From the IMG/VR virus record IMGVR_UViG_3300021960_009431: 64,000 nucleotides of DNA; one strand, given 5' to 3'. Under the pieces are notes generated by a model. The model had not been told where the DNA came from. It did no database searches and saw only the letters and a list, made by a program, of their open reading frames with translations. Both the position numbers and the translations under genes were made by a program. The DNA comes from a virus. Shown in pieces: positions 1 through 49,292 of the stretch; position 1 is the first letter of the stretch; each line of letters starts with the position of its first letter.

Positions 1-1
1 T

Positions 2-643
2 TCAAATTATTTAACTGATGATCAAGCATTACAAGAAGTAAAAGAATTATTTGGAGAAGATATTACTTCGCCTAGACAATTTTCTTTTGAGGCAGGTAGA
101 TATAAAGAGGTGTGGAAAAATAATTGTATAGCTATAGGACTATCACAAGGCTTTATTGAACCGTTAGAAGCCACATCAATATATGTTTCTTGTGTTTCGT
201 TAATTACCGCACTATCAAACTTCTATAAATTAGAAAAGAGAGATCAACTTTTTATAGATGAATACAATAATATATTTGCAAAAAGAATGCAAGAAATATT
301 AGATTTTATCTATTTTCATTACATAACAGATAGAACTGATACTGATTTTTGGAAACACTTTACTATTAGAAATAAAGTTCCTGACTCATTAAAAGAAAAA
401 TTATCAACATGGCAAAAAAGATTACCAGTTGAATCTGATTTAAATCATAAAGCAATTTTTGGATTACATAGTTGGTTAATGATTGGTACGGGTAATAATT
501 TTATAAACAAAGACCGTTACCAACAAGAAATATTTGACTATAATAACTTTAATATCAATATCGAAGAGTATAATAAAAGAAAAGAACGTGCTGTTAATGA
601 TAGCATATTACACAAAGATTTTTTAAATATATTAAAAAAGTAG
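2..643 (+). CDS. prnA: Tryptophan halogenase-like flavin-dependent halogenase, C-terminal part (5' end outside window)
   Basis: Frame is open from position 2 (SNYLTDDQAL...FEAGRYKEVWKNNCIAIGLSQGFIEPLEATSI...HY.TDRTDTDFW). The GLSxGFxEPLEAT and HY-x3-RxDTxFW motifs are typical of PrnA. Confidence 0.85.
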   Translation, partial: SNYLTDDQALQEVKELFGEDITSPRQFSFEAGRYKEVWKNNCIAIGLSQGFIEPLEATSIYVSCVSLITALSNFYKLEKRDQLFIDEYNNIFAKRMQEILDFIYFHYITDRTDTDFWKHFTIRNKVPDSLKEKLSTWQKRLPVESDLNHKAIFGLHSWLMIGTGNNFINKDRYQQEIFDYNNFNINIEEYNKRKERAVNDSILHKDFLNILKK

Positions 644-672
644 TTGCCTTTTATTTCATTTGTTCCTATAAT
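644..672 (+). promoter_or_regulatory. Sigma70-type (early) promoter TTGCCT-N17-TATAAT
   Basis: TTGCCT 644-649, 17-nt spacer, TATAAT 667-672. Same architecture at 2305, 51314, 53621 and 36771(-). Confidence 0.7.
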
Positions 673-700
673 ATGGTATAAAATGAAATAAGGATTTATT

Positions 701-1270
701 ATGAATAATGTGATATTAACAGATGCCGATGGCGTACTTCTTAACTGGGAGTACGCCTTCGATTGTTGGATGGAAGAGAAAGGTTATACACCTTTAACTC
801 GAGACATCTATGATGTAAATTCTCGATATGGATTAGATAAAGAAGAAAAAGATTTACTAGTGAGGTCTTTTAACGAGTCAGCTGCAATTGGCTTTCTTCC
901 TCCTCTACGTGATGCTATTCATTATGTGCGTAAGCTACATGAAGAGCATGGTTATATTTTTCGAGTAATTACATCGCTTAGTCTCAATAAGCATGCTGGA
1001 CGTCTTCGTCAGAAGAACTTATTTAAGTTGTTTGGTACTGCTATTGATGACGTTCTGTGCTTGGATACAGGTGCAGATAAAGACGAAGCTTTAGCACCTT
1101 ATAAAGATTCAGGTATGATTTGGATCGAAGATAAGCCTGAGAATGCTGATCTTGGTGCTGAGCTTGGTCTTACATCTTATTTGATTGAACATAAACATAA
1201 TATGAATCATGATAACAATGATGTTACTATCGTAAAGAACTGGAAAGAGCTTTATGAGTTGATCTCCTAG
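701..1270 (+). CDS. HAD-superfamily 5'-nucleotidase-like protein (T4 gp30.2-like)
   Basis: N-terminal DxDGVL motif and WIEDK motif IV. Confidence 0.7.
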   Translation: MNNVILTDADGVLLNWEYAFDCWMEEKGYTPLTRDIYDVNSRYGLDKEEKDLLVRSFNESAAIGFLPPLRDAIHYVRKLHEEHGYIFRVITSLSLNKHAGRLRQKNLFKLFGTAIDDVLCLDTGADKDEALAPYKDSGMIWIEDKPENADLGAELGLTSYLIEHKHNMNHDNNDVTIVKNWKELYELIS

Positions 1271-1306
1271 TATGGTAAAAATACCATACTTTTTATTTAT
1301 TTTTTA
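1269..1306 (+). terminator. Intrinsic terminator
   Basis: AGTATGGTA-aaaa-TACCATACT stem followed by a T-rich run. Confidence 0.6.
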
Positions 1307-1350
1307 GTTTCAGGGAAAAAATAAACCTATACTACTAAATAAAATTGTTA

Positions 1351-1608
1351 ACGTTGAAGCAACGTAGACGTATTCTGGACCTGGGGGCGGTACCCAGCAG
1401 CTCCACCAAGTGTACATTTAATGAGTGTATAGTTGATGGGGCTGAAATAGGATCGACAGGTGCGAAAGTGAAGTGGAGTTAACCGGATGACTGCGTTATT
1501 GGTCAACAACTACAAATGCAAACGATAATTTTGCACCATCTGGTTATGCACTAGCTGCATAGGCACAGGGGGAGGCCACTGCCTAGCAACAGAAGTGTGG
1601 CGTTCAAC
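1351..1608 (+). ncRNA. ssrA: Circularly permuted (two-piece) tmRNA, alphaproteobacterial type; tag (A)ANDNFAPSGYALAA
   Basis: Acceptor piece: T-arm CTGGG-GGCGGTA-CCCAG, then CAGCTCC-A-CCA ending at 1408. Intervening spacer 1409-1437. Coding piece begins GGGGCTGAAATAGGATCGAC at 1438 and pairs with CAGCTCC including a G3.U70 pair. Tag ORF 1518-1562 (GCA AAC GAT AAT TTT ... GCT GCA TAG). 3' TAGCAACAGAA motif. Outer ends approximate. Confidence 0.93.
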
Positions 1609-1625
1609 TATAAGAGGAGATCATT

Positions 1626-1859
1626 ATGGAAGTTCTAAACAAAGTAAAATCATGGGCAGGTGCTCTAGCTGAGGTTGGTCTTAGCGTAGCAGCTCTTGCA
1701 ATCATACTAGAAGTCCTAGGTATGGGTAACATGCCATTCATGCCAGAAGGTATGAGCGTAGTAGATAATGTTTCAGCTATGATATCAGGTCTAGGTTCAC
1801 AAGGTGTGATGGGTTTGATCGCTGTTTGGGTTCTATATGAAATCTGGAATCGTAAATAA
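1626..1859 (+). CDS. Small two-helix membrane protein
   Basis: GAGGAG RBS; two hydrophobic segments. Confidence 0.75.
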   Translation: MEVLNKVKSWAGALAEVGLSVAALAIILEVLGMGNMPFMPEGMSVVDNVSAMISGLGSQGVMGLIAVWVLYEIWNRK

Positions 1860-1875
1860 TAAGAAAGAACGATAA

Positions 1876-2250
1876 ATGAAAGTTTTAACTACAGCTGCAG
1901 TTGCAGCTACTTTTTTAACTACTGCAGCTTATGCTGTAGACCTGGGTAACGGATTGACTGTAGGTGGTGAGCTGGATGCTCATTGGGCAGTTGATGCTGA
2001 AGCACTGTCAATGACATTAACACCTGAAATTGGTTATAATGCATGGGGTAATGATTTTACTGCGTCTACAGATTTGGATGTATACAAAAATGAAGATGTA
2101 GTTATTGGTGATGCATTTGACTCACTAGTAGTTGACTTCAAAGTGACACGTCCATGGATGTCAAATATTGAATTGTATGGGGAAACTTCTTGGGATTTCG
2201 ATGCTGAAGAGCGTGGAGAGATTTCAGTAGGTGCAACATTCTCATTTTAA
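1876..2250 (+). CDS. Secreted outer-membrane beta-barrel/porin-like protein
   Basis: Sec signal peptide ending AYA; amphipathic beta strands; C-terminal VGATFSF beta-signal with terminal Phe. Confidence 0.65.
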   Translation: MKVLTTAAVAATFLTTAAYAVDLGNGLTVGGELDAHWAVDAEALSMTLTPEIGYNAWGNDFTASTDLDVYKNEDVVIGDAFDSLVVDFKVTRPWMSNIELYGETSWDFDAEERGEISVGATFSF

Positions 2251-2268
2251 TTTATAGATAAACAAATG

Positions 2269-2293
2269 AAAAGGGGCTCAGGCCCCTTTTTTT
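2269..2293 (+). terminator. Intrinsic terminator
   Basis: AAAAGGGGC-tcag-GCCCCTTTT followed by a T run. Confidence 0.85.
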
Positions 2294-2304
2294 GTATAAA
2301 ACAG

Positions 2305-2333
2305 TTGCCTTCTGTTGTGAATTATATTATTAT
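2305..2333 (+). promoter_or_regulatory. Sigma70-type promoter TTGCCT-N17-TATTAT
   Basis: Preceded by TAAAACAG, exactly as in the uvsY promoter at 51306. Confidence 0.6.
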
Positions 2334-2358
2334 AATATAACGAGCAGGAGAGAAAAAA

Positions 2359-2880
2359 ATGAAATACTTGGTAAAAGTACTTTCAGCTATTTTAATAGCT
2401 GTGTCATCTACTTTTTTATTTGCAACTACTAATATTGTATTAGCAGATGCTGAAAAAAGAGGGATGGATAAAAATGAAATAGAGTGTCTTGCACTTAATA
2501 TCTATTTCGAAACTAGCGCAGTATCTTTAGCAGACGCAATTGCAGTTTCAGATGTTGTAATGAATAGAATCAACTCAACACGTTACCCTGATACTGTTTG
2601 TGAAGTAGTGAAGCAAGGGCATAAACATCCTAACGGTGCAATGAAGAGACATCAATGTCAGTTTAGTTGGTATTGTGATGGTAAATCCGATACACCAAAT
2701 AATTATGAAGCTTGGGAAAGATCTAGAACAGTAGCTTATGATATGTATATAAACAAAACATATATTGGTATTACTGAAGGCTCTACCCATTATCATGCTA
2801 ACTATGTTTCACCAGCTTGGGCTAAGCAATTACAAAGAATTACTCGAGTAGGTTCTCATATCTTTTATAGGCAGAATTAA
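2359..2880 (+). CDS. SleB-like cell wall hydrolase (Hydrolase_2)
   Basis: CLALNIYFE, VVMNR, YPDTVCEVV, CQFSW, THYHANYVSPAW and HIFY motifs; N-terminal signal/anchor. Confidence 0.9.
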   Translation: MKYLVKVLSAILIAVSSTFLFATTNIVLADAEKRGMDKNEIECLALNIYFETSAVSLADAIAVSDVVMNRINSTRYPDTVCEVVKQGHKHPNGAMKRHQCQFSWYCDGKSDTPNNYEAWERSRTVAYDMYINKTYIGITEGSTHYHANYVSPAWAKQLQRITRVGSHIFYRQN

Positions 2881-3659
2881 TGAAGTATGTTTTAGTGACT
2901 GGAGGATTTGATCCTCTGCATTCTGGTCATATTGAATATTTTAAAGCAGCGAAAAATCTAGGACATAAACTTATTGTAGGTTTAAACTCAGATGAATGGT
3001 TAACAAGAAAAAAAGGTAAACCTTTCTTGCCGTTTGAAGAAAGAGCAGCTATAATAAAAGAATTACAGATGGTTGATGAAGTCATCAAGTTCATTGATAA
3101 AGATGATACAGCTTGTAATGCTATCTATAAAGCTCTAACTATAGCAGGAAGTCATAATGATGTTATTTTTGCTAATGGTGGAGATAGAGAAAATAATAAT
3201 ACACCTGAATATAAATTATACAAAAATACATACGGTTTGAAATTTGCTTGGGGTGTTGGTGGTAACGATAAAATTAATTCGTCTAGCTGGATTTTAGATG
3301 AATGGAAAACTCAAAAGACTGAGCGTGATTGGGGTTACTGGAGAGTATTAGACGATAAGCAACCTGATGTAGGTATTAAAGTAAAAGAATTAGTTATTGA
3401 ACCAGGTTGTAACTTAAGTGATCAAAAGCATTACAGTCGTTCAGAGCACTGGTATATTCTTGAAGGCGATTTACAAATCGATTTAGAATATCCAAATGGG
3501 GAATGGCAAATACAGATGTTATCTCAACATACTACATTTGTAATACCTCAAGGCACATGGCATAAAACAACTAATATAGGTAAAACAAAAGCTCACATTC
3601 TCGAAGTTCAATATGGAGAGAAATGTGTAGAGGAGGATATAGAGCGTAGAAATGGTTGA
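2880..3659 (+). CDS. Cytidylyltransferase (RfaE/TagD-like) fused to a mannose-6-phosphate isomerase-type cupin
   Basis: GGFDPLHSGH (HxGH) and ANGGDR; C-terminal ERDWG...Q.H..RSEHW...EVQYG...EEDIER. Confidence 0.85.
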   Translation: MKYVLVTGGFDPLHSGHIEYFKAAKNLGHKLIVGLNSDEWLTRKKGKPFLPFEERAAIIKELQMVDEVIKFIDKDDTACNAIYKALTIAGSHNDVIFANGGDRENNNTPEYKLYKNTYGLKFAWGVGGNDKINSSSWILDEWKTQKTERDWGYWRVLDDKQPDVGIKVKELVIEPGCNLSDQKHYSRSEHWYILEGDLQIDLEYPNGEWQIQMLSQHTTFVIPQGTWHKTTNIGKTKAHILEVQYGEKCVEEDIERRNG

Positions 3660-3876
3660 AATAATGAACACACAAGCTTTTTCAATGAAAATTGAACAAG
3701 TTGTTAAAGATAAAAGAATAGGTTATTTCGATGCTGTATTATGGTATTGTGAGCAAAACGAAATAGAAATTGAAACAGGTGCTAAACTAATTAACACTAT
3801 TATAAAGAAAAAGATAGAAGCAGAAGCTTCTGATGCTAATCTACTAAAAGAAAAGTCAGCTAAGTTGCCTGTATAA
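3652..3876 (+). CDS. gp33: Late-promoter transcription coactivator gp33
   Basis: FS.KIE...YFDAVL.YCEQNEIEIE...KIEAEA...LP pattern; T4 synteny 33-59-32. Confidence 0.85.
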   Translation: MVEIMNTQAFSMKIEQVVKDKRIGYFDAVLWYCEQNEIEIETGAKLINTIIKKKIEAEASDANLLKEKSAKLPV

Positions 3877-4490
3877 TGAATAATATATACGAAGGTCTGA
3901 ATGCTTATAAAACTTATCTAGCGATCAGAAACCACTTCAATACTGATTATGATTATTTTAAATATAAAGGAAAGTTGAAAGTATCAAATGACAGTTTCCT
4001 TAAAAGACGTGACAAATTTTTCTTCGCTAAGCTGGAGCGAAATTATCGCAATAACGAGCTCGTCTATTTCTTTGTCGCTAATTTTCTTGATAATGATAGT
4101 AGTTGGTCTGGTTCTTTGGTTGGATCAGAGAGCGAAAAAAAATATTTAGAATGGCGTAAACGTATTGAAAGTTTGAAGTACATCTTTAAGACGGAGTGTG
4201 AAAAAATACAAAATGAAATCGATTATAAAGATATTAACTTCGACGAGTTTTTTAGAGTTTTGGACTCCAATCATCCTCGTCTTCTTAATTGGCAACTTGG
4301 TAGCCATATTAGTCTTGAGACATTTACTATCATGGATGGGATATTAAATTTCACAAAACAGTGGAACTCTCACCTAAAAGATGATATAATGTATTATACA
4401 GTTAGAGATAAATCTAGCAAGTATAAACCTTTCTTACAAGTTGACCTACAAGCTTATAGAAAGATTATGAAGAATGTATTTACTAGCTAA
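3876..4490 (+). CDS. gp59: Helicase loader gp59
   Basis: YKTYLAIRNHF..YDYFKY.GK, RRDKFFF, ISLET and KYKPFL motifs. Confidence 0.9.
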   Translation: MNNIYEGLNAYKTYLAIRNHFNTDYDYFKYKGKLKVSNDSFLKRRDKFFFAKLERNYRNNELVYFFVANFLDNDSSWSGSLVGSESEKKYLEWRKRIESLKYIFKTECEKIQNEIDYKDINFDEFFRVLDSNHPRLLNWQLGSHISLETFTIMDGILNFTKQWNSHLKDDIMYYTVRDKSSKYKPFLQVDLQAYRKIMKNVFTS

Positions 4491-4552
4491 ATACTATTAT
4501 ATTATGATTATTGTGGATAAGAAACTATACATCGCATATATGGAGAATACAT

Positions 4553-5452
4553 ATGACAAGTTCATTCGCAGAGCTTAAATCAGCTCGAAAGACTTCACTC
4601 GAAGCACTTATTTCAGAAACTAATAAACTAAACAGTAATGAAGGTACTGCACGTTCAGTAGATGATCGCTGGTGGAAACCTGAAGTAGATAAAGCAGGTA
4701 ATGGCTATGCTGTTATTCGTTTTCTACCTGCACCTGAAGGTGAAGATATGCCTTGGGTGCGTATCTTTAATCATGGTTTTCAAGGACCAGGTGGTTGGTA
4801 TATTGAAGACTCTTTAACCACTCTTAATAAAAAAGATCCTGTATCTGAACATAATTCTATGCTTTGGAATTCAGGTATTGAATCTAATAAAGATGTTGTA
4901 CGTAAACAGAAACGTCGATTGAATTATTATGCTAACATTTATGTTGTAAAAGATCCTTCTAATCCAGCTAATGAAGGTAAAGTGTTTCTTTACAAGTTCG
5001 GAAAGAAAATCTTTGACAAGCTTAATGAAGCAATGAACCCTGAGTTTGAAGATGAGTCACCAATGAATCCTTTTGATCTATGGGAAGGTGCTAACTTTAA
5101 GCTTAAAATTCGTCAGGTAGAAGGGTATCGTAATTATGATAAGTCAGAGTTTGACTCATCATCCGCATTACTTGATGATGACGATACTATGGAAAAAGTA
5201 TGGAAGTCAGAAAACTCTCTACAAGAGTTTCTAGATCCTAAAAACTTTAAGTCATATGATGAGCTTAAAGCTAAACTAAATCGCGTACTTGGTCTTGATG
5301 GATCATCTGGTAGTACAACTAAAGCAGATGAAATTGAAATCGAAAGTGCTCCAGCTCAAAAAGCTGCTCCTGCACCTTCATTCACATCTAAGACTGATGA
5401 CGATGATGACGACAGTATGTCTTTCTTTGAAAAGTTAGCTGCTGACGACTAA
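4553..5452 (+). CDS. gp32: Single-stranded DNA binding protein gp32
   Basis: DKAGNGYAVIRFLP, HGFQGPGGWYIE, FGKKIFDK motifs and acidic tail. Start moved to ATG 4553, which follows a GGAG RBS. Confidence 0.95.
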   Translation: MTSSFAELKSARKTSLEALISETNKLNSNEGTARSVDDRWWKPEVDKAGNGYAVIRFLPAPEGEDMPWVRIFNHGFQGPGGWYIEDSLTTLNKKDPVSEHNSMLWNSGIESNKDVVRKQKRRLNYYANIYVVKDPSNPANEGKVFLYKFGKKIFDKLNEAMNPEFEDESPMNPFDLWEGANFKLKIRQVEGYRNYDKSEFDSSSALLDDDDTMEKVWKSENSLQEFLDPKNFKSYDELKAKLNRVLGLDGSSGSTTKADEIEIESAPAQKAAPAPSFTSKTDDDDDDSMSFFEKLAADD

Positions 5453-5549
5453 AAAATCCTATGTATGGAAGTGGCCCTCTAACATAGGTCGGTAAAAGCA
5501 CTGGTACCGGATAACCCAGTCGGTTGCTGCATACGTGAAATGCAGATAG

Positions 5550-5580
5550 AAAGAGGGGCACCTAGGAAGGCCCCTCTTTT
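5550..5580. terminator. Bidirectional intrinsic terminator between convergent genes
   Basis: AAAGAGGGGC...GCCCCTCTTTT. Confidence 0.8.
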
Positions 5581-5583
5581 GAT

Positions 5584-8400
5584 TTATGCAAAACGACTCA
5601 TAGCAGCTGAAGTATAACTTGTATCAACTCTTACATTTCTAGCAGCTGCTGTTCTTGCTGCACCGCTACCTCTACCTGCAATCATTTGACTATTATCAAT
5701 ATTATTAACTACAGTAGTAACTGGTACGTTAATTTGATTTGACATCGTTGCTAAACTCATTGCTGAAGGTGTAACTGTTGGTTTATCTATGGTATCTAAA
5801 GAAGCAATAGCAGGTGCACTAGGTAATGAACCTATCTCAAATTCTCCAGCAGGTAGCGGGGCAGTTCTAAATACAGTACCTCCAAGAGTTACTCCACCGC
5901 CTCTTATCATATCATCCCTATAACCTATATTAGTTCCAGCTCCATAAGCACCAGTAGCTGCAGCTGTAAAGTCTTTCTGATCCCTAGATACTTTTGGTAA
6001 AACATTGATTGCAGCTTCAGCAATATCTGCTTGAGACTCAACACCCGGTCCTTCCAAAAACATTGGACTGGGCTGCCGTCCATTTGCTGATGTTCCAGTG
6101 ACTGCTTGAAATTGATTTTTAGCTACTAAAGCTCCTATAATACTGCCATCTGGGTGATCTTGATATTGAGTACGAGCACGGTTTAATATTGACCCCATAA
6201 TCATACCTTTTTCTACTGTATAATCACCGCCGGTTTGAGCTGAAGATTCAGCATAAACTGCTCTAACCAGATAATTTAATTCAACATCAGATACAGGTCG
6301 TCCTAGATATTGTTCTATAGCTTCACGAGGTGTGAGCTCTGCAGAAGGTATTACATCATCTTGAGGCGTAGCTTGAAGATAATCAGAAATTTCTGATTGT
6401 GGAACAAATGTATCATTAAATGTACCTATAGGGTATTGATCATAATTACCAGTCACTGGTAGATCACCACCACCATATATATAATCTGTATCAGAAATAG
6501 CATCAAGAGCATTGTATTCCATACCAGGTGCTACATTACCTTGCATCCCCGGCAGTCTACCCGATGAAACTTTACCAATTGGGTTACTTCCTGGAGCAAA
6601 TCCTAACTCTCTATTAACAGTAGCATCAATAGCTGGTTGCATATCTATTTGATCTTCAGCATCAAGTGCCCATAATAATAAAGATCTAACTATATAATCT
6701 CCACTAATATATCCAGCAATACCAGCAATTGCACCTGTTAGTGGAGCAAATGGACCACCTATTAATGCTCCAGCAGCTGCAGCTAACACACTTACTGTTA
6801 GTCCGGCAAATTCTCCTGACACCATTGCCACTTTTTGAGTAGTACTAAGCGTATCATCTGTTAAAATATAATATGTAGAACCAGCAGCAAATGCAACACT
6901 CAATCCAGGCACTTTACCTAACAGTTTATTTAATTTTGGGTATTTCGAAAGAGCACTTCTCTTAGCATCATCTATTGAAGCAAACGTGCCAGGTTTTTGT
7001 CCACCTGCTCCTGTTGCACCGGGTGCTACTCTATATCTTTGCATTTTTTTATCAAAGACATATCCAGATTGCCTTAACGGTGTTTTTGCAGCGCTTAGAG
7101 CTAAAGCAGCTGCAGTACCCACAGCAGCACTATCCATCAATTTATTAAATTCACCTTCTATAGATTCATCTAAATTTTCATCAATATTAGTATCAGATTC
7201 ATCTTCATTAAATAAATCTGCTATACCTAATCTATTGAATGTATAAGCTGCTATTGCAGTTGCAGCGGTTGCAATAAGAAGACCTTTACTTCTACCTAAC
7301 AATCTAGGTTTTAAAGCTTTAGCTCCTTTTGGAGCTTTTTCTTTACCAGCATTTGCTGCTCCAGCTGCTAAAGCTAAAGGTGTTAAAGCAACTGTACCCA
7401 TTGCTAATGCACTTGCAATCAATGCTCCATATTCTGATAAGGTTTCACTTTCTAAGAAATCAAATAGTTCATCTTCATTGTCAGGTTCAAAGAAATCATC
7501 TAATCCAAAATAATTAAATGCAAAGTAAGCCATTGCACCTGCTAATGGTATTATTAATTTTCCCTTTACACCTTTTGCTCCAAATAAAGATGTAGCTAAT
7601 CTTGCTCCTAAGAAAAGGCTTGTTGCAGTACCTGCATTTACTAAACCTTCACCGGTTATTTCTACTCCAGTTTTTTCTTTAAATATTTTAAAAAATTCAG
7701 TTTCGAAATCAGTTTCTAAAGTTTTAATTCCTTCATCAATTGCATCCGCTACATCTTGATTAGCTTCAGGATTAAAGAATGCATTTAGTCCTAGATAGCC
7801 TAGCATAAAGGTTGCCATAGCGAGAGGAATTGTTTTAAACTTAGCCCCTCCCATTAAGAATGCAACTAAACCAGCTCCTGCAGCGGCGGATGCTACAGGA
7901 TTATTTTGTATAGCGCCTGCTAAACCACCATTACCATCTTCTCCAAAGATTAATGAATCGAATTTATCTCCGGCACTTTTCTTAAATTCATCATATGCCT
8001 CATCACCAGCTAACTCATCTTTAAAATCATCTAATCCAAAATATCTATAAGCTGCTGTCCCAAGTATACCTAATAAACCAGCAGTAATAAGACCTCTTAA
8101 TAGACCACCTCTTGCTGTTGTATCTAGAGAACCAATAGCAGCAGGTCCCGTTTCACTTTCCATTCTAGCTGAAGCTTGTTGTAAACGGTCTTCTTCTCTT
8201 TGTTGTTCAGTTAATCTTAATTCTTCGTCTTCTTTTGCTAAACTATCTACGCGCATTTGTTCAGCGAGAGTATCTGATTGAACAGTAAGAATATCTACGA
8301 CACTTTCTAAGCGCGTATTAGATTGTATAAGAGTACTTCTTATATCTTCGAGTAATGTGGAATTATTTTCCAAATACTCTCTTACTGCGACGTCAGCCAT
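5584..8400 (-). CDS. Tape-measure/hub-like (gp29-like) protein with C-terminal SleB/Hydrolase_2-type lytic domain
   Basis: Long Ala/Gly-rich helical and hydrophobic stretches; LVRAVYAES...ILNRAR...KNQFQAV hydrolase motif; lies downstream of gp26/gp51. Confidence 0.65.
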   Translation of the reverse strand: MADVAVREYLENNSTLLEDIRSTLIQSNTRLESVVDILTVQSDTLAEQMRVDSLAKEDEELRLTEQQREEDRLQQASARMESETGPAAIGSLDTTARGGLLRGLITAGLLGILGTAAYRYFGLDDFKDELAGDEAYDEFKKSAGDKFDSLIFGEDGNGGLAGAIQNNPVASAAAGAGLVAFLMGGAKFKTIPLAMATFMLGYLGLNAFFNPEANQDVADAIDEGIKTLETDFETEFFKIFKEKTGVEITGEGLVNAGTATSLFLGARLATSLFGAKGVKGKLIIPLAGAMAYFAFNYFGLDDFFEPDNEDELFDFLESETLSEYGALIASALAMGTVALTPLALAAGAANAGKEKAPKGAKALKPRLLGRSKGLLIATAATAIAAYTFNRLGIADLFNEDESDTNIDENLDESIEGEFNKLMDSAAVGTAAALALSAAKTPLRQSGYVFDKKMQRYRVAPGATGAGGQKPGTFASIDDAKRSALSKYPKLNKLLGKVPGLSVAFAAGSTYYILTDDTLSTTQKVAMVSGEFAGLTVSVLAAAAGALIGGPFAPLTGAIAGIAGYISGDYIVRSLLLWALDAEDQIDMQPAIDATVNRELGFAPGSNPIGKVSSGRLPGMQGNVAPGMEYNALDAISDTDYIYGGGDLPVTGNYDQYPIGTFNDTFVPQSEISDYLQATPQDDVIPSAELTPREAIEQYLGRPVSDVELNYLVRAVYAESSAQTGGDYTVEKGMIMGSILNRARTQYQDHPDGSIIGALVAKNQFQAVTGTSANGRQPSPMFLEGPGVESQADIAEAAINVLPKVSRDQKDFTAAATGAYGAGTNIGYRDDMIRGGGVTLGGTVFRTAPLPAGEFEIGSLPSAPAIASLDTIDKPTVTPSAMSLATMSNQINVPVTTVVNNIDNSQMIAGRGSGAARTAAARNVRVDTSYTSAAMSRFA

Positions 8401-8581
8401 TTTGCTCTCTCTGTTTCTCTATTTTTTCTAGATAGGTTTTTAACATATCAATATAAACATCACGCTCAAAAGGTATCATATTTTCTATTTCTTCTAACGA
8501 ATATTTATGATGTTGCATCAAATTAAAATTCGTATAGTACATGTTCGCTAAGCTGTTATGGCTTAGCGCTACATAAAAAAA
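8393..8581 (-). CDS. gp51: Baseplate hub assembly catalyst gp51 (start uncertain: ATG 8542 or entry by -1 frameshift from gp26)
   Basis: TNFNLMQHHKYSLEEIENMIPFERDVY motif. Confidence 0.85.
   Translation of the reverse strand, partial: FFYVALSHNSLANMYYTNFNLMQHHKYSLEEIENMIPFERDVYIDMLKTYLEKIEKQREQNG
8546..8581 (-). promoter_or_regulatory. Putative programmed -1 ribosomal frameshift signal
   Basis: Minus strand: T TTT TTT slippery heptamer, 6-nt spacer ATGTAG, perfect 8-bp hairpin CGCTAAGC-cataaca-GCTTAGCG. Confidence 0.65.
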
Positions 8582-9291
8582 CTGTTCAGACCACGTAAAG
8601 GTATGAACTCCTCCTTCCCACACTCTGCACATGTATAGGTAATGTTATGACCAATGTAAGGCATAGTTTTATAAAAGTCAGCTAATTTATTAAATTGTTT
8701 GCTATTTAACTGCTCAACAAATTCCATTAATTCTTCTTTAGTACTATTTTCATGTACATCATCATTGTCAAAAATTATTGAAATATTTTCAGCAAAAAAA
8801 CGTAAAATATTTTCAACGTTACTATCACTAAGTTTTTCCTGGGCTTTGTTTAAACCTGTAATAGTTGGGTATTTCATTACTACACCTACATCATCTGTAA
8901 GCATAATTTTATTATCGTGCTCTTCAGGAAATATAACTTCTACTTCTTCTAAATTTAATTCATATTCAGTAGTATGTTTACATTCACTTTCACCAGGATG
9001 GCGTAAAGAAAGCTTTACAAGATTATTTACTGATCTTGCTCTAATTTGTAAAAACAAATATTCAATATCAAAATTAGGAAGATTAACAATTCTTTTTTCA
9101 TCTAACTTAACACAGCTAGTTAAAATATTAACTACTGCGTTAGTTATTTCTTCTTGATCATTTCCTTCTAATGCCATTAAAAGAAGCTTTTCTTCTTTCA
9201 CAAGGAAAGGTCTAAAATACACTTCTTCTTTTGTAGACGGTATAATCGCTTTAAATTCAGGCACTGCGATTTTTGGTAAAGCCATATTCAC
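8569..9291 (-). CDS. gp26: Baseplate hub assembly chaperone gp26
   Basis: MALPK...FRPFLVKEEKLLLMA, FDIEYLFLQIRARSV, GVVMKYP, C..C..GL.SFF motifs. Confidence 0.9.
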   Translation of the reverse strand: MNMALPKIAVPEFKAIIPSTKEEVYFRPFLVKEEKLLLMALEGNDQEEITNAVVNILTSCVKLDEKRIVNLPNFDIEYLFLQIRARSVNNLVKLSLRHPGESECKHTTEYELNLEEVEVIFPEEHDNKIMLTDDVGVVMKYPTITGLNKAQEKLSDSNVENILRFFAENISIIFDNDDVHENSTKEELMEFVEQLNSKQFNKLADFYKTMPYIGHNITYTCAECGKEEFIPLRGLNSFFM

Positions 9292-33459: not shown

Positions 33460-33508
33460 AACCCCTTAGATTGCTTGCTTATAAATATAGGTAAACAACT
33501 AAGGGGTT
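33460..33508 (+). promoter_or_regulatory. T4-type late promoter TATAAATA inside an RBS-sequestering hairpin
   Basis: AACCCCTTAG (33460-69) / CTAAGGGGTT (33499-508) inverted repeat around TATAAATA 33480-87. Confidence 0.75.
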
Positions 33509-38413: not shown

Positions 38414-38421
38414 TATAAATA
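38414..38421 (+). promoter_or_regulatory. T4-type late promoter TATAAATA (gp18)
   Basis: Exact consensus; other copies at 21873, 33480, 41428, 46591, 46602, 48071, 49250; gp55 and gp33 are present. Confidence 0.8.
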
Positions 38422-41418: not shown

Positions 41419-41451
41419 AGGGGGTACTATAAATATAGTATACCCCCTTTT
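41419..41451 (+). terminator. Terminator hairpin containing late promoter TATAAATA (41428-41435)
   Basis: AGGGGGTA...TACCCCCT followed by TTT. Confidence 0.7.
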
Positions 41452-48067: not shown

Positions 48068-48111
48068 TATTATAAATAATAGAGAATAATCCATCAAAGG
48101 AGAAAATAACG

Positions 48112-49245: not shown

Positions 49246-49292
49246 AAATTATAAATAATATTAGATTTGGAAAACCTTAAAGGAGAAATCAA

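Follow-up and report, generated by a model that had tools for sequence, protein, structure and literature searches.

The closest described system to the one reported here is the cyanophage protein family DUF680/PhCOG173. According to the available part of PMC6224464, this family, common in cyanomyophages, has been associated with phosphate limitation, and on some hosts it is dispensable. The available part of PMC9146016 links it to the phosphate-stress response and reports a cyanophage DUF680 protein in a virion proteome. In the accessible text of a preprint (bioRxiv 10.64898/2026.10.24.761521), the cyanophage family is classed as a six-stranded incomplete barrel, and AlphaFold-Multimer closes a flattened 12-stranded dimer. 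It should be mentioned that IPR056410 of this preprint was equated with PF24653/DUF680 by matching description only. Another described system concerns transfer-messenger RNA (tmRNA). Methylophilales phage Melnitz and pelagimyophages themselves encode an alpha-type two-piece tmRNA, close to the gene for the gp33 "transcription coactivator"; in Melnitz, the coactivator gene is described as following the tmRNA immediately, and the 3′ part of the tmRNA contains a glutamine riboswitch (available part of PMC9004378). Here we analyze IMG/VR record IMGVR_UViG_3300021960_009431, a stretch of 64,000 nucleotides of viral DNA (the window), in which a tmRNA gene is followed by two small open reading frames (ORFs), ORF77 and ORF124, named after the lengths of their products in amino acids (aa).

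ORF124 and the cyanophage DUF680/PhCOG173 proteins are alike in that they are about 120 aa long, carry a Sec signal peptide ahead of about 100 mature residues with six amphipathic strands, end in an aromatic-x-Phe motif (F123 is invariant in the cyanophage alignment), are acidic in the mature part, occur in phages only and are predicted to form a 2 × 6 = 12-stranded dimeric barrel. In contrast, the median charge is −15 in the ORF124 family and −7 in the cyanophage family. Furthermore, the cyanophage genes are linked to phosphate stress (the P-SSM2 copies lie by pstS), whereas ORF124 follows the tmRNA gene and ORF77. Its neighbors in the window are the tmRNA gene, ORF77 and a gene for a SleB-type hydrolase, and not pstS or phoA. 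Like Melnitz and the pelagimyophages, the phage of the window has its own alpha-type two-piece tmRNA near gp33. Unlike in Melnitz, four genes lie between the tmRNA gene and gp33, and no glutamine riboswitch was detected by Rfam at E ≤ 1 over positions 1-6000.

We propose the following explanation, to which we assign a probability of about 0.5. A terminator-bounded unit of about 1 kb would begin with the phage's own two-piece tmRNA gene and continue with two small envelope genes, whose message would be carried as the 3′ trailer of the tmRNA precursor. ORF124 would be exported via its Sec signal peptide and would present the beta-signal G-A-T-F-S-F to the beta-barrel assembly machinery (BAM). 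In the outer membrane, two copies would then join first strand to last strand and so close a barrel of 12 strands whose inward face is strongly acidic. Such a phage-installed channel may alter the permeability of the envelope to cations or small solutes during infection, and ORF77 would be a frequent but dispensable inner-membrane companion. Taken by itself, a role of ORF124 as a pore, or in another change of envelope permeability, is the likeliest of the roles considered, at somewhat below even odds. Our sequence comparisons show the anatomy of the unit, how it is conserved, its synteny and the remote homology; fold and dimer come from models; that the genes are co-transcribed, where ORF124 resides and what it does are inferred.

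The tmRNA-led unit and its conservation

The features of the unit are as follows.

1269-1290, + strand: upstream intrinsic terminator, a 9-bp stem and a T run (−10.3 kcal/mol; 0 of 200 shuffles fold as well)
1301-1604 (core 1347-1562), + strand: permuted (two-piece) alphaproteobacterial-type tmRNA gene, from Rfam and ARAGORN
1335-1341, + strand: CTAAATA, a tentative candidate for a T4-late-type promoter element, 5 nt ahead of the start of the tmRNA model
1613-1621, + strand: Shine-Dalgarno-like AAGAGGAGA for ORF77, read from the sequence, 9 nt past the conserved tmRNA 3′ end
1626-1859, + strand: ORF77, predicted 77-aa two-helix membrane hairpin, from the ORF list, an alignment of ORF77 relatives (A4), AlphaFold2 and hydropathy
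1876-2250, + strand: ORF124, 124 aa
1876-1935, + strand: ORF124 signal peptide, residues 1-20, cleavage after A-Y-A, read from the sequence
1936-2250, + strand: mature ORF124, 104 aa and the stop codon, with six predicted amphipathic beta-strands, an acidic inward face and a C-terminal beta-signal
2268-2295, + strand: downstream intrinsic terminator, a GC-rich hairpin with a U7 tail (−17.3 kcal/mol; 1 of 200 shuffles folds as well)

Rfam model RF04321 matches positions 1347-1562 with 123.5 bits (cut-off 47), and RF01849 matches positions 1301-1604 with 117.9 bits (cut-off 50). ARAGORN calls a tmRNA at 1315-1653 with the tag peptide ANDNFAPSGYALAA. Thus, both marks of a permuted alpha-type tmRNA are present, namely a covariance score above the gathering cut-off and a tag reading frame that ends in ..ALAA. 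The 3′ limit of the ARAGORN call lies within ORF77 and is probably too long.

The terminator at 1269-1290 closes the upstream gene (701-1270). The two flanking terminators are about 1 kb apart and enclose the tmRNA gene, ORF77 and ORF124; therefore, this unit is insulated on both sides. It should be mentioned that our terminator scan had assigned the hairpin at 2268-2295 to the minus strand. A match to SraG at 2186-2291 (24.6 bits; cut-off 50) corresponds to this terminator and not to SraG. Between the tmRNA gene and ORF77, no terminator was found in the scan, and there is no significant RNA structure at the junction (1563-1640; z −0.68). Within the unit, only a weak 6-bp hairpin in the signal-peptide codons (1893-1908; −9.3 kcal/mol; 5 of 200 shuffles are as good) resembles a terminator, and it is probably a chance feature. 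A first-pass annotation of this DNA, made by a model from the sequence alone, had described a tmRNA-linked mini-operon with no terminator between the tmRNA and the two genes and a strong terminator at 2269-2293, and our scans agree with it on these points. The three genes form one conserved unit, and co-transcription would be the simplest reading. The start codon of ORF77 is 22 nt past the conserved 3′ end of the tmRNA, and related loci have AAGGAG-like boxes at the position equivalent to that of the AAGAGGAGA box. Because of this spacing and because no convincing promoter lies between, the ORF77/ORF124 mRNA is most likely the 3′ trailer of the tmRNA precursor.

The element before the tmRNA gene in the window is ACTAAATA, which ends 5 nt ahead of position 1347. 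In 14 of 18 loci, the window included, a NNTAAATA element is present not more than 15 nt from the tmRNA start, and the remaining four match TATAAATA at 7 of 8 positions. The presence of NNTAAATA or ACTAAATA before the tmRNA gene hints at late-type transcription. In the window, TATAAATA occurs 12 times on the + strand and 0 times on the − strand. RNA-library contigs from four runs or libraries, belonging to four studies, extend over ORF77 and ORF124 as far as position 2237, and one contig of 308 nt (1634-1941) spans the junction of ORF77 and ORF124; no contig covers positions 2242-2600 (all of this among the matches listed).

The arrangement was compared in two sets of loci. Set 1 consists of 26 IMG/VR loci retrieved with ORF77, and set 2 of 37 IMG/VR viral loci retrieved with an alignment of closer ORF124 relatives (A1); the counts of the two sets are not independent, since several loci are near-identical or come from shared contigs. 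In 9 of the 26 loci of set 1, a signal-peptide protein of 121-134 aa that ends in ...FSF and can be aligned to ORF124 (A1) is encoded directly downstream of ORF77. Rfam places a permuted tmRNA directly upstream in 8 of these 9 pair-bearing loci (the exception is L001), and ARAGORN finds a tmRNA directly upstream in 1 locus only. ORF77 occurs in other contexts, without an ORF124 partner, in 17 of the 26 loci. The arrangements around the ORF124 relatives of set 2 are as follows.

tmRNA directly upstream, ORF77 between: 19 loci
tmRNA directly upstream, no ORF77: 10 loci
ORF77 upstream, no tmRNA match: 2 loci
neither tmRNA nor ORF77: 6 loci

Accordingly, a tmRNA is directly upstream of the ORF124 relative in 29 of the 37 loci. 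In 22 of 22 loci, 61-86 nt separate the stop codon of the tag from the start codon that follows, and a weak hairpin is present in this gap only in L038. A terminator-like hairpin follows the ORF124 homologue in 18 of the 21 loci that have downstream sequence. Moreover, two large records carry ORF77 and an ORF124 relative about 30 kb apart. From the arrangements in both sets and from these two split genomes, the tightest linkage is therefore that of tmRNA to the ORF124 relative, and ORF77 is a frequent but dispensable insert. The two proteins had been regarded as an envelope-remodelling pair; given ORF77 alone in 17 loci and ORF124 relatives behind tmRNA without ORF77 in 10, such a pair is not obligate.

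The ORF77 and ORF124 proteins

ORF77 is highly conserved and is predicted to form a hairpin of two helices in the inner membrane, in which a Glu within the membrane is invariant and Gly residues form a stripe. In the AlphaFold2 model (predicted local distance difference test, pLDDT, 83.1), helices 2-30 and 45-76 are joined by a loop of 14 residues, and 19-residue Kyte-Doolittle windows reach at least 1.6 at 9-39 and 52-70. Residues G18, S20 and E29 in the first helix, N48 and G57/G60/G63 in the second helix, and W68 and W74 are invariant in alignment A4. The relatives of ORF77 fall into 361 protein clusters (50% identity), most of them 74-100% identical to it, and the codon differences are mainly synonymous (26 of 37 and 33 of 47, for example). 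Therefore, ORF77 is a real gene. It has no Pfam family at E ≤ 1; phrog_32365 (E 0.63) is its only match in PHROGs, and for the two ORFs NCBIfam gives only a match with E 0.88. Its matches in the Protein Atlas are unnamed viral clusters, a profile search of PDB sequences gave 0 matches at E ≤ 1, and the fold search was uninformative (best Z 4.9). Few small membrane proteins in the viral loci that we retrieved are as conserved as ORF77, to which no function has been assigned.

ORF124 begins with the signal peptide MKVLTTAAVAATFLTTAAYA, which is followed by VD and has an A-x-A cleavage site. A20 is invariant in A1 and is present in at least 90% of the members of A2, the 98-sequence alignment of the ORF124 family. 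The C-terminus, ...VGATFSF, contains the beta-signal G119-x-x-F122-x-F124; these three residues are nearly invariant in A2, where 97 of 98 members end in Phe and one in Trp. Thus, ORF124 carries the sequence marks of a BAM substrate, namely a Sec signal peptide and a C-terminal beta-signal that ends in Phe or Trp. In all 98 members, the mature part carries a net charge of −8 to −22 (median −15). Family-wide, the six strands alternate: one face is hydrophobic (mean Kyte-Doolittle +1.5 to +3.0), and the other face is 20-40% acidic in the first five strands. The close relatives of ORF124 form 15 clusters, and a profile search extends them to 141 clusters (50% identity, E ≤ 1e-3), nearly all of 105-136 aa; ORF124 is therefore real and more than a chance reading frame. 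P0234, P0249 and similar long profile matches are repetitive immunoglobulin-like or beta-repeat proteins, and we read them as compositional. The weak Pfam matches among the 98 members are mostly to outer-membrane protein families (OMP_b-brl, 10; Phage_OMP, 9; Porin_4, 6). A profile search of PDB sequences gave nothing below E 0.06. Up to this point, the sequence bears out what the first-pass annotation had noticed, that is, a small inner-membrane protein followed by a 124-aa protein with a signal peptide, a terminal Phe beta-signal and about 104 mature residues.

Some relatives of ORF124 (L001:4249-4632, L002:4258-4650, L003 and L005) differ at the N-terminus. Their signal region is longer and contains a lipobox-like L-(T/A)-A-C, after which AEAEAAE follows; the L-(T/A)-A-C box lies in the signal peptide of relatives from L001-L005. 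These relatives may be lipid-anchored, unlike the protein of the window.

The AlphaFold2 monomer model of ORF124, built with the 98-sequence alignment, is a six-strand beta-meander (pLDDT 81.4; predicted template modelling score, pTM, 0.63). Its strands are at 27-38, 43-56, 59-71, 85-93, 98-107 and 117-122, and the turns have 2-13 residues. In a Foldseek comparison, the model matches the 12-strand porin KdgM (TMq 0.57; root-mean-square deviation, rmsd, 2.9 Å). The fold-search Z scores were 9.3 for the BrkA beta-domain, 8.4 for PapC and 8.3 for KdgM. The matches are parts of larger (10-16-stranded) outer-membrane barrels and not small closed ones: the minimal OmpA barrel (2jmm) fits poorly (TMq 0.42; rmsd 5.8 Å). 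The fold search alone leaves the location of ORF124 unsettled. Mature ORF124 is predicted to be too short to close a barrel alone, in other words, to be half a barrel. With six strands in 104 residues, it is below eight-strand closure, as was suspected when it was first called small for a monomeric barrel.

When two chains of the mature protein (residues 21-124) were folded together with A2, the dimer score was 0.52, and the best of 3 controls gave 0.00. Of 30 proteins whose solved structure is a one-chain pair, 20 attain the mark for this score; of 23 solved as single chains, 1 does. This calibration holds only roughly since the model was built on our own alignment. In three runs, the contacts agreed 100% and the pLDDT of the partner was at least 86. 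Residues 30-41 of one copy face residues 114-124 of the other in a symmetric, antiparallel manner, strand 1 to strand 6. Because the first strand meets the last strand on both sides, this is a geometry that closes a 12-stranded barrel. Thus, on these models, the most probable form of ORF124 is a homodimer that closes a 12-stranded barrel around an acidic lumen, and its features point to the outer membrane. The AlphaFold modelling of monomer and multimer that the first-pass annotation had proposed as a check accordingly gave a six-strand half-barrel and a closed dimer. Of the oligomeric nutrient pore suggested at that time, the oligomeric barrel has a model in its favor, and nothing shows nutrient uptake. 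If the homodimeric 2 × 6 barrel is real, it would pose a new problem for BAM-mediated assembly and may serve as a minimal scaffold for pore engineering.

These features set ORF124 apart from other barrels. Lambda Lom, of the OmpX/Ail type (OMP_b-brl), is likewise a small phage-made, host-inserted outer-membrane beta-barrel protein with a terminal Phe. However, Lom, OmpX and Ail are closed monomeric 8-stranded barrels of about 150-170 residues. OmpA, OmpX and Lom have at least eight strands in one chain and belong to PF13505, whereas ORF124 has six strands and no Pfam match. In trimeric autotransporter anchors and TolC (3 × 4 strands), one barrel is made from several identical chains, each of which gives a sheet. 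One A2 member has a weak YadA_anchor match (E 0.0038). Unlike these systems, ORF124 would use two chains of six strands, without a passenger or periplasmic domain. We know of no solved 2 × 6 barrel.

Comparison with the cyanophage family at the sequence level gave the following results. With PF24653, the "Cyanophage outer membrane protein like beta barrel domain", Syn9 yields one gene and P-SSM2 two, at 110-172 bits; the P-SSM2 genes are annotated "DUF680 domain-containing protein" and are two copies just before pstS. The cyanophage Phage_OMP family has 6,257 clusters. ORF124 of the window does not reach the PF24653 cut-off (27 bits), 9 of the 98 family members match weakly (best E 5e-5), and PF24653 was not found in two records that hold ORF124 relatives or ORF77. 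In contrast, hhalign of A2 against the Phage_OMP alignment (A3) gave a probability of 90% and an E of 1.7e-6, collinear over 113 columns end to end, a score to which the signal peptide and the C-terminal motif may contribute. We regard ORF124 and its relatives as a new family of phage proteins, predicted to be outer-membrane half-barrels and probably a distant relative of cyanophage DUF680/PhCOG173, a link that the first-pass annotation had not made. The family would extend the cyanophage "DUF680" idea to phages of marine heterotrophs, and it has a defined, testable context, an mRNA riding on a phage tmRNA gene.

The ORF77 and ORF124 families have so far been found only in phages. No tblastn match to ORF77, ORF124 or the L019 homologue was obtained in 50,697 deposited phage records, although the low-complexity filter of BLAST may hide weak ones, and blastn of 1300-2300 in distant mode gave only short tmRNA pieces in 3 records. 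Pattern scans of one genome each of 185,579 prokaryote species found no relative of ORF77 or ORF124, with a sensitivity limited to the patterns used. Profiles of both families found nothing in HTVC008M, Mosig, P-SSM2 and Syn9; the positive controls in IMG/VR records were 4 of 5 and 5 of 5. Unlike the phage of the window, HTVC008M and Mosig, the two cultured pelagimyophages searched, thus lack both families, so that this biology is so far known from metagenomes only. In the pelagimyophage survey PMC7029224, the words tmRNA, ssrA, porin, holin and lysis are all absent. We found no description of the ORF124 family or of a tmRNA-outer-membrane protein linkage in the literature; the supplementary lists of 10.64898/2026.10.24.761521 may hold overlapping marine six-stranded proteins.

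Weighing of the explanations

Several observations weigh against the explanation proposed above. For the transcription unit, a promoter lacks confident identification in the sequence: CTAAATA is not enriched across the window (17 found, 27.9 expected). Furthermore, no RNA-library contig among the matches listed crosses the tmRNA/ORF77 junction (1601-1628), and the contigs, which are weak support, can neither show transcript ends nor exclude DNA carry-over. For the protein, ORF124 of the window has 0 Pfam families at E ≤ 1 and no PHROG or NCBIfam family, and part of the hhalign score may stem from its two ends. Foldseek gave no match at E ≤ 1e-3, with middling scores, and soluble DUF3836 beta-proteins come close behind the outer-membrane matches (Z 7.9 and 7.5). 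The location, oligomer state and conductance of ORF124 are predicted properties, and the dimer score is only roughly calibrated. For the role, the cyanophage dimer is called "flattened" in the accessible text of 10.64898/2026.10.24.761521, so that an open pore is not assured, and an acidic lumen misfits phosphate, the nutrient tied to the cyanophage relatives. A more far-reaching version of the proposed explanation, which we regard as decidedly doubtful, is that BAM stitches two six-stranded chains into an acid-lined, cation-selective 12-stranded pore, that the mRNA is the tmRNA trailer and that ORF77 is the inner-membrane channel of a trans-envelope conduit. If this were true, ribosome rescue and envelope remodelling would be switched on together.

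The gene next to the unit bears on another explanation.

2359-2880, + strand: secreted SleB-type cell-wall hydrolase, a neighbor outside the unit (Pfam Hydrolase_2, 3.4e-21; phrog_938 "endolysin")

Homologues of this hydrolase adjoin the tmRNA block in 34 of the 63 IMG/VR loci (L001-L063) compared and in the window, in at least four gene orders, a conserved neighborhood that the first-pass annotation had not pointed out. This is our best argument for a lysis or egress module, in which the hydrolase would be an endolysin exported by Sec or as a signal-arrest-release (SAR) protein, ORF77 would be a pinholin-like trigger, and ORF124 would weaken the outer membrane or protect released progeny at the end of infection. 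We consider such a module somewhat unlikely. In its favor, the hydrolase has an N-terminal signal or SAR-like segment in addition to the phrog_938 match, the late-promoter-like NNTAAATA stands ahead of the tmRNA gene in 14 of 18 loci, and in L015, L016 and L026 ORF77 is followed by membrane-anchored coiled-coil proteins, one of which matches XhlA/"hemolysin" weakly (Pfam E 0.0021; phrog_937 E 5e-4). Pinholin S21-68 is small and has two transmembrane domains (TMDs), the first weakly hydrophobic and the second Gly-rich, and a SAR endolysin nearby. ORF77 is similarly small, has a weakly hydrophobic, charged TMD1 and a TMD2 with a Gly stripe, and lies near a Sec/SAR-type exported muralytic enzyme. 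However, ORF77 has no sequence or profile similarity to S21-68 and no holin family match in Pfam or PHROGs (no family below E 0.6), its cytoplasmic C-terminal tail is just N-R-K instead of a charged tail, and its sequence identity stays at 64-100% in phage contexts that differ widely, an unusual trait for a holin. The gene order also argues against this module. The hydrolase starts 500 nt downstream of ORF77, behind ORF124 and the strong terminator, and has its own early-type promoter-like site (TTGCCT-17-TATTAT, 2305-2333). It is downstream of the block in the window and upstream (0.2-2.3 kb) in related loci; L058-L063 have no hydrolase nearby, and two genomes separate ORF77 from the ORF124 relative by about 30 kb. 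ORF124 has none of the spanin hallmarks: it contains no Cys (lipobox), and beta-strands take the place of a coiled coil. To our knowledge, no outer-membrane beta-barrel acts in phage lysis, which also counts against this role.

Other explanations concern ORF124 itself or its linkage to tmRNA. Superinfection exclusion or receptor masking, named in the first-pass annotation, would mean that ORF124 binds or crowds a host receptor and so blocks further phages or the adsorption of progeny after lysis. The accessible text of 10.64898/2026.10.24.761521 cites the blocking of LamB by lambda Lom and proposes this role for phage outer-membrane proteins, and the signal peptide, beta-signal and outer-membrane-type fold of ORF124 would suit it. 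Nothing in our analysis shows either activity or points there specifically, since there is no known receptor and there are no long surface loops, and the strongly conserved acidic inward face suggests a lumen rather than a binding surface; this role is quite unlikely. Still less likely is that ORF124 is not a membrane barrel at all but a secreted soluble beta-sandwich, a small periplasmic beta-barrel or a virion-associated protein. The DUF3836 scores lie near those of the outer-membrane matches, amphipathic strands fit sandwiches too, and the cyanophage DUF680 protein was detected in a virion proteome (available part of PMC9146016). On the other hand, 97 of 98 members keep the terminal Phe and G-x-x-F-x-F, the weak Pfam matches are mostly to outer-membrane families, and the dimer model closes a barrel via its edge strands, with controls at 0.00. 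Outer-membrane proteins are common contaminants of virion preparations, which weakens the argument from the proteome. Finally, the tmRNA linkage may be functionally meaningless, the space between tmRNA and terminator being a tolerated insertion site and ORF77/ORF124 perhaps even using a promoter inside the tmRNA gene. ORF77 without tmRNA in 17 of 26 loci, ORF124 relatives without adjacent tmRNA in 8 of 37, and a weak promoter-like site at 1500-1529 in the tmRNA gene (9 of 12 matches) are in line with this idea. However, the linkage is kept in 29 of 37 loci among relatives that are just 28-47% identical in protein, the spacing is fixed at 61-86 nt, and the promoter scan was no richer than shuffles (11 against 9.5). 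Therefore, we consider a meaningless linkage unlikely.

Genome setting and features of the related loci

The stretch was assigned to a T4-like myophage from PHROG matches. Downstream of the unit, three genes lie together at 3652-5452.

3652-3873: gp33-like late-transcription factor (PHROG match)
within 3652-5452: gp59 helicase loader (PHROG match)
4511-5449: gp32 (PHROG match)

Further PHROG matches in the window are to baseplate, sheath, portal, scaffold and major head proteins and to the large terminase. In the gp32 region, the DNA shares about 75% identity with Pelagibacter phage Mosig and with two marine single-cell virus records. The source is an uncultured T4-like marine myophage related to pelagimyophages, and from the alphaproteobacterial type of the tmRNA we infer a SAR11-like host.

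Copies of TATAAATA have the placement expected of T4-type late promoters, 33-45 nt ahead of structural genes, namely those for the sheath, the portal, the scaffold and the major head protein. Examples are as follows.

33480-33487, + strand: TATAAATA
38414-38421, + strand: TATAAATA
41428-41435, + strand: TATAAATA
48071-48078, + strand: TATAAATA
49250-49257, + strand: TATAAATA

Early-type promoter sites, GTTGC(C/A)-N17-TATAAT, are present at 644-672 and 2305-2333 and before 51380 and 53678, and such sites precede the genes starting at 701 and 2359. Two metabolic genes stand beside the unit: a tryptophan-halogenase-like C-terminal fragment at the window edge (2-643; Pfam 2.4e-35) and a fused cytidylyltransferase and cupin/mannose-6-phosphate-isomerase-like protein (2880-3659; Pfam 1.9e-14 and 2e-18). 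On the − strand, a 938-aa ORF (5584-8400) with no PHROG family at E ≤ 1e-5 lies just downstream of a gp26/51-like tail-assembly gene (8393-9285).

In the related loci, a conserved two-hairpin RNA motif is found directly after ORF124 homologues (L002:4654-4730, L019:4610-4686, L036:1415-1500 and 24 more loci). Its form is GGGT-stem1-ACNTAATA-stem1′-CG-stem2-CCAYGGTTAG-stem2′, often followed by a T run. It occurs as one copy per locus in 27 loci, with compensatory changes in 7 of 11 pairs. No Rfam family matches the motif at E ≤ 5, and the window lacks it (best 12 bits, E 0.84). A scan of IMG/VR with a 15-nt core gave 80 loci, of which 16 have an upstream ORF124-family ORF and about 27 more have, by eye, the full motif and no such ORF. 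Thus, the motif is wider than this operon.

Other phage contexts were also observed. In L015 (4379-5290), L016, L026 and L003 (3773-4391), three small proteins are encoded after ORF77: one of 133 aa that has a transmembrane segment at its N-terminus and a coiled coil (phrog_20984), one of 71-77 aa (phrog_24646) and a tail-anchored coiled-coil protein of 92-97 aa with weak XhlA/"hemolysin" matches. In L003 (2598-2786), and likewise in L001, L002, L004 and L005, a 63-69-aa DUF6356 ORF (Pfam E 5.1e-12) lies inside the intervening segment of the permuted tmRNA, and the Rfam match of these tmRNA genes is stretched to about 367 nt for a model of 213 positions. Counterparts of phrog_20984, the XhlA-like gene, phrog_20531, DUF1289, DUF3310 and DUF6356 were not found in the window at E ≤ 1e-2. 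In four loci (L001:2796-3269, L023:3162-3635, L054 and L056), a 158-aa membrane protein of the Na+/Pi-cotransporter family (PF02690, E 3.8e-16) is encoded just upstream of the block, which may be a faint echo of the cyanophage phosphate context.

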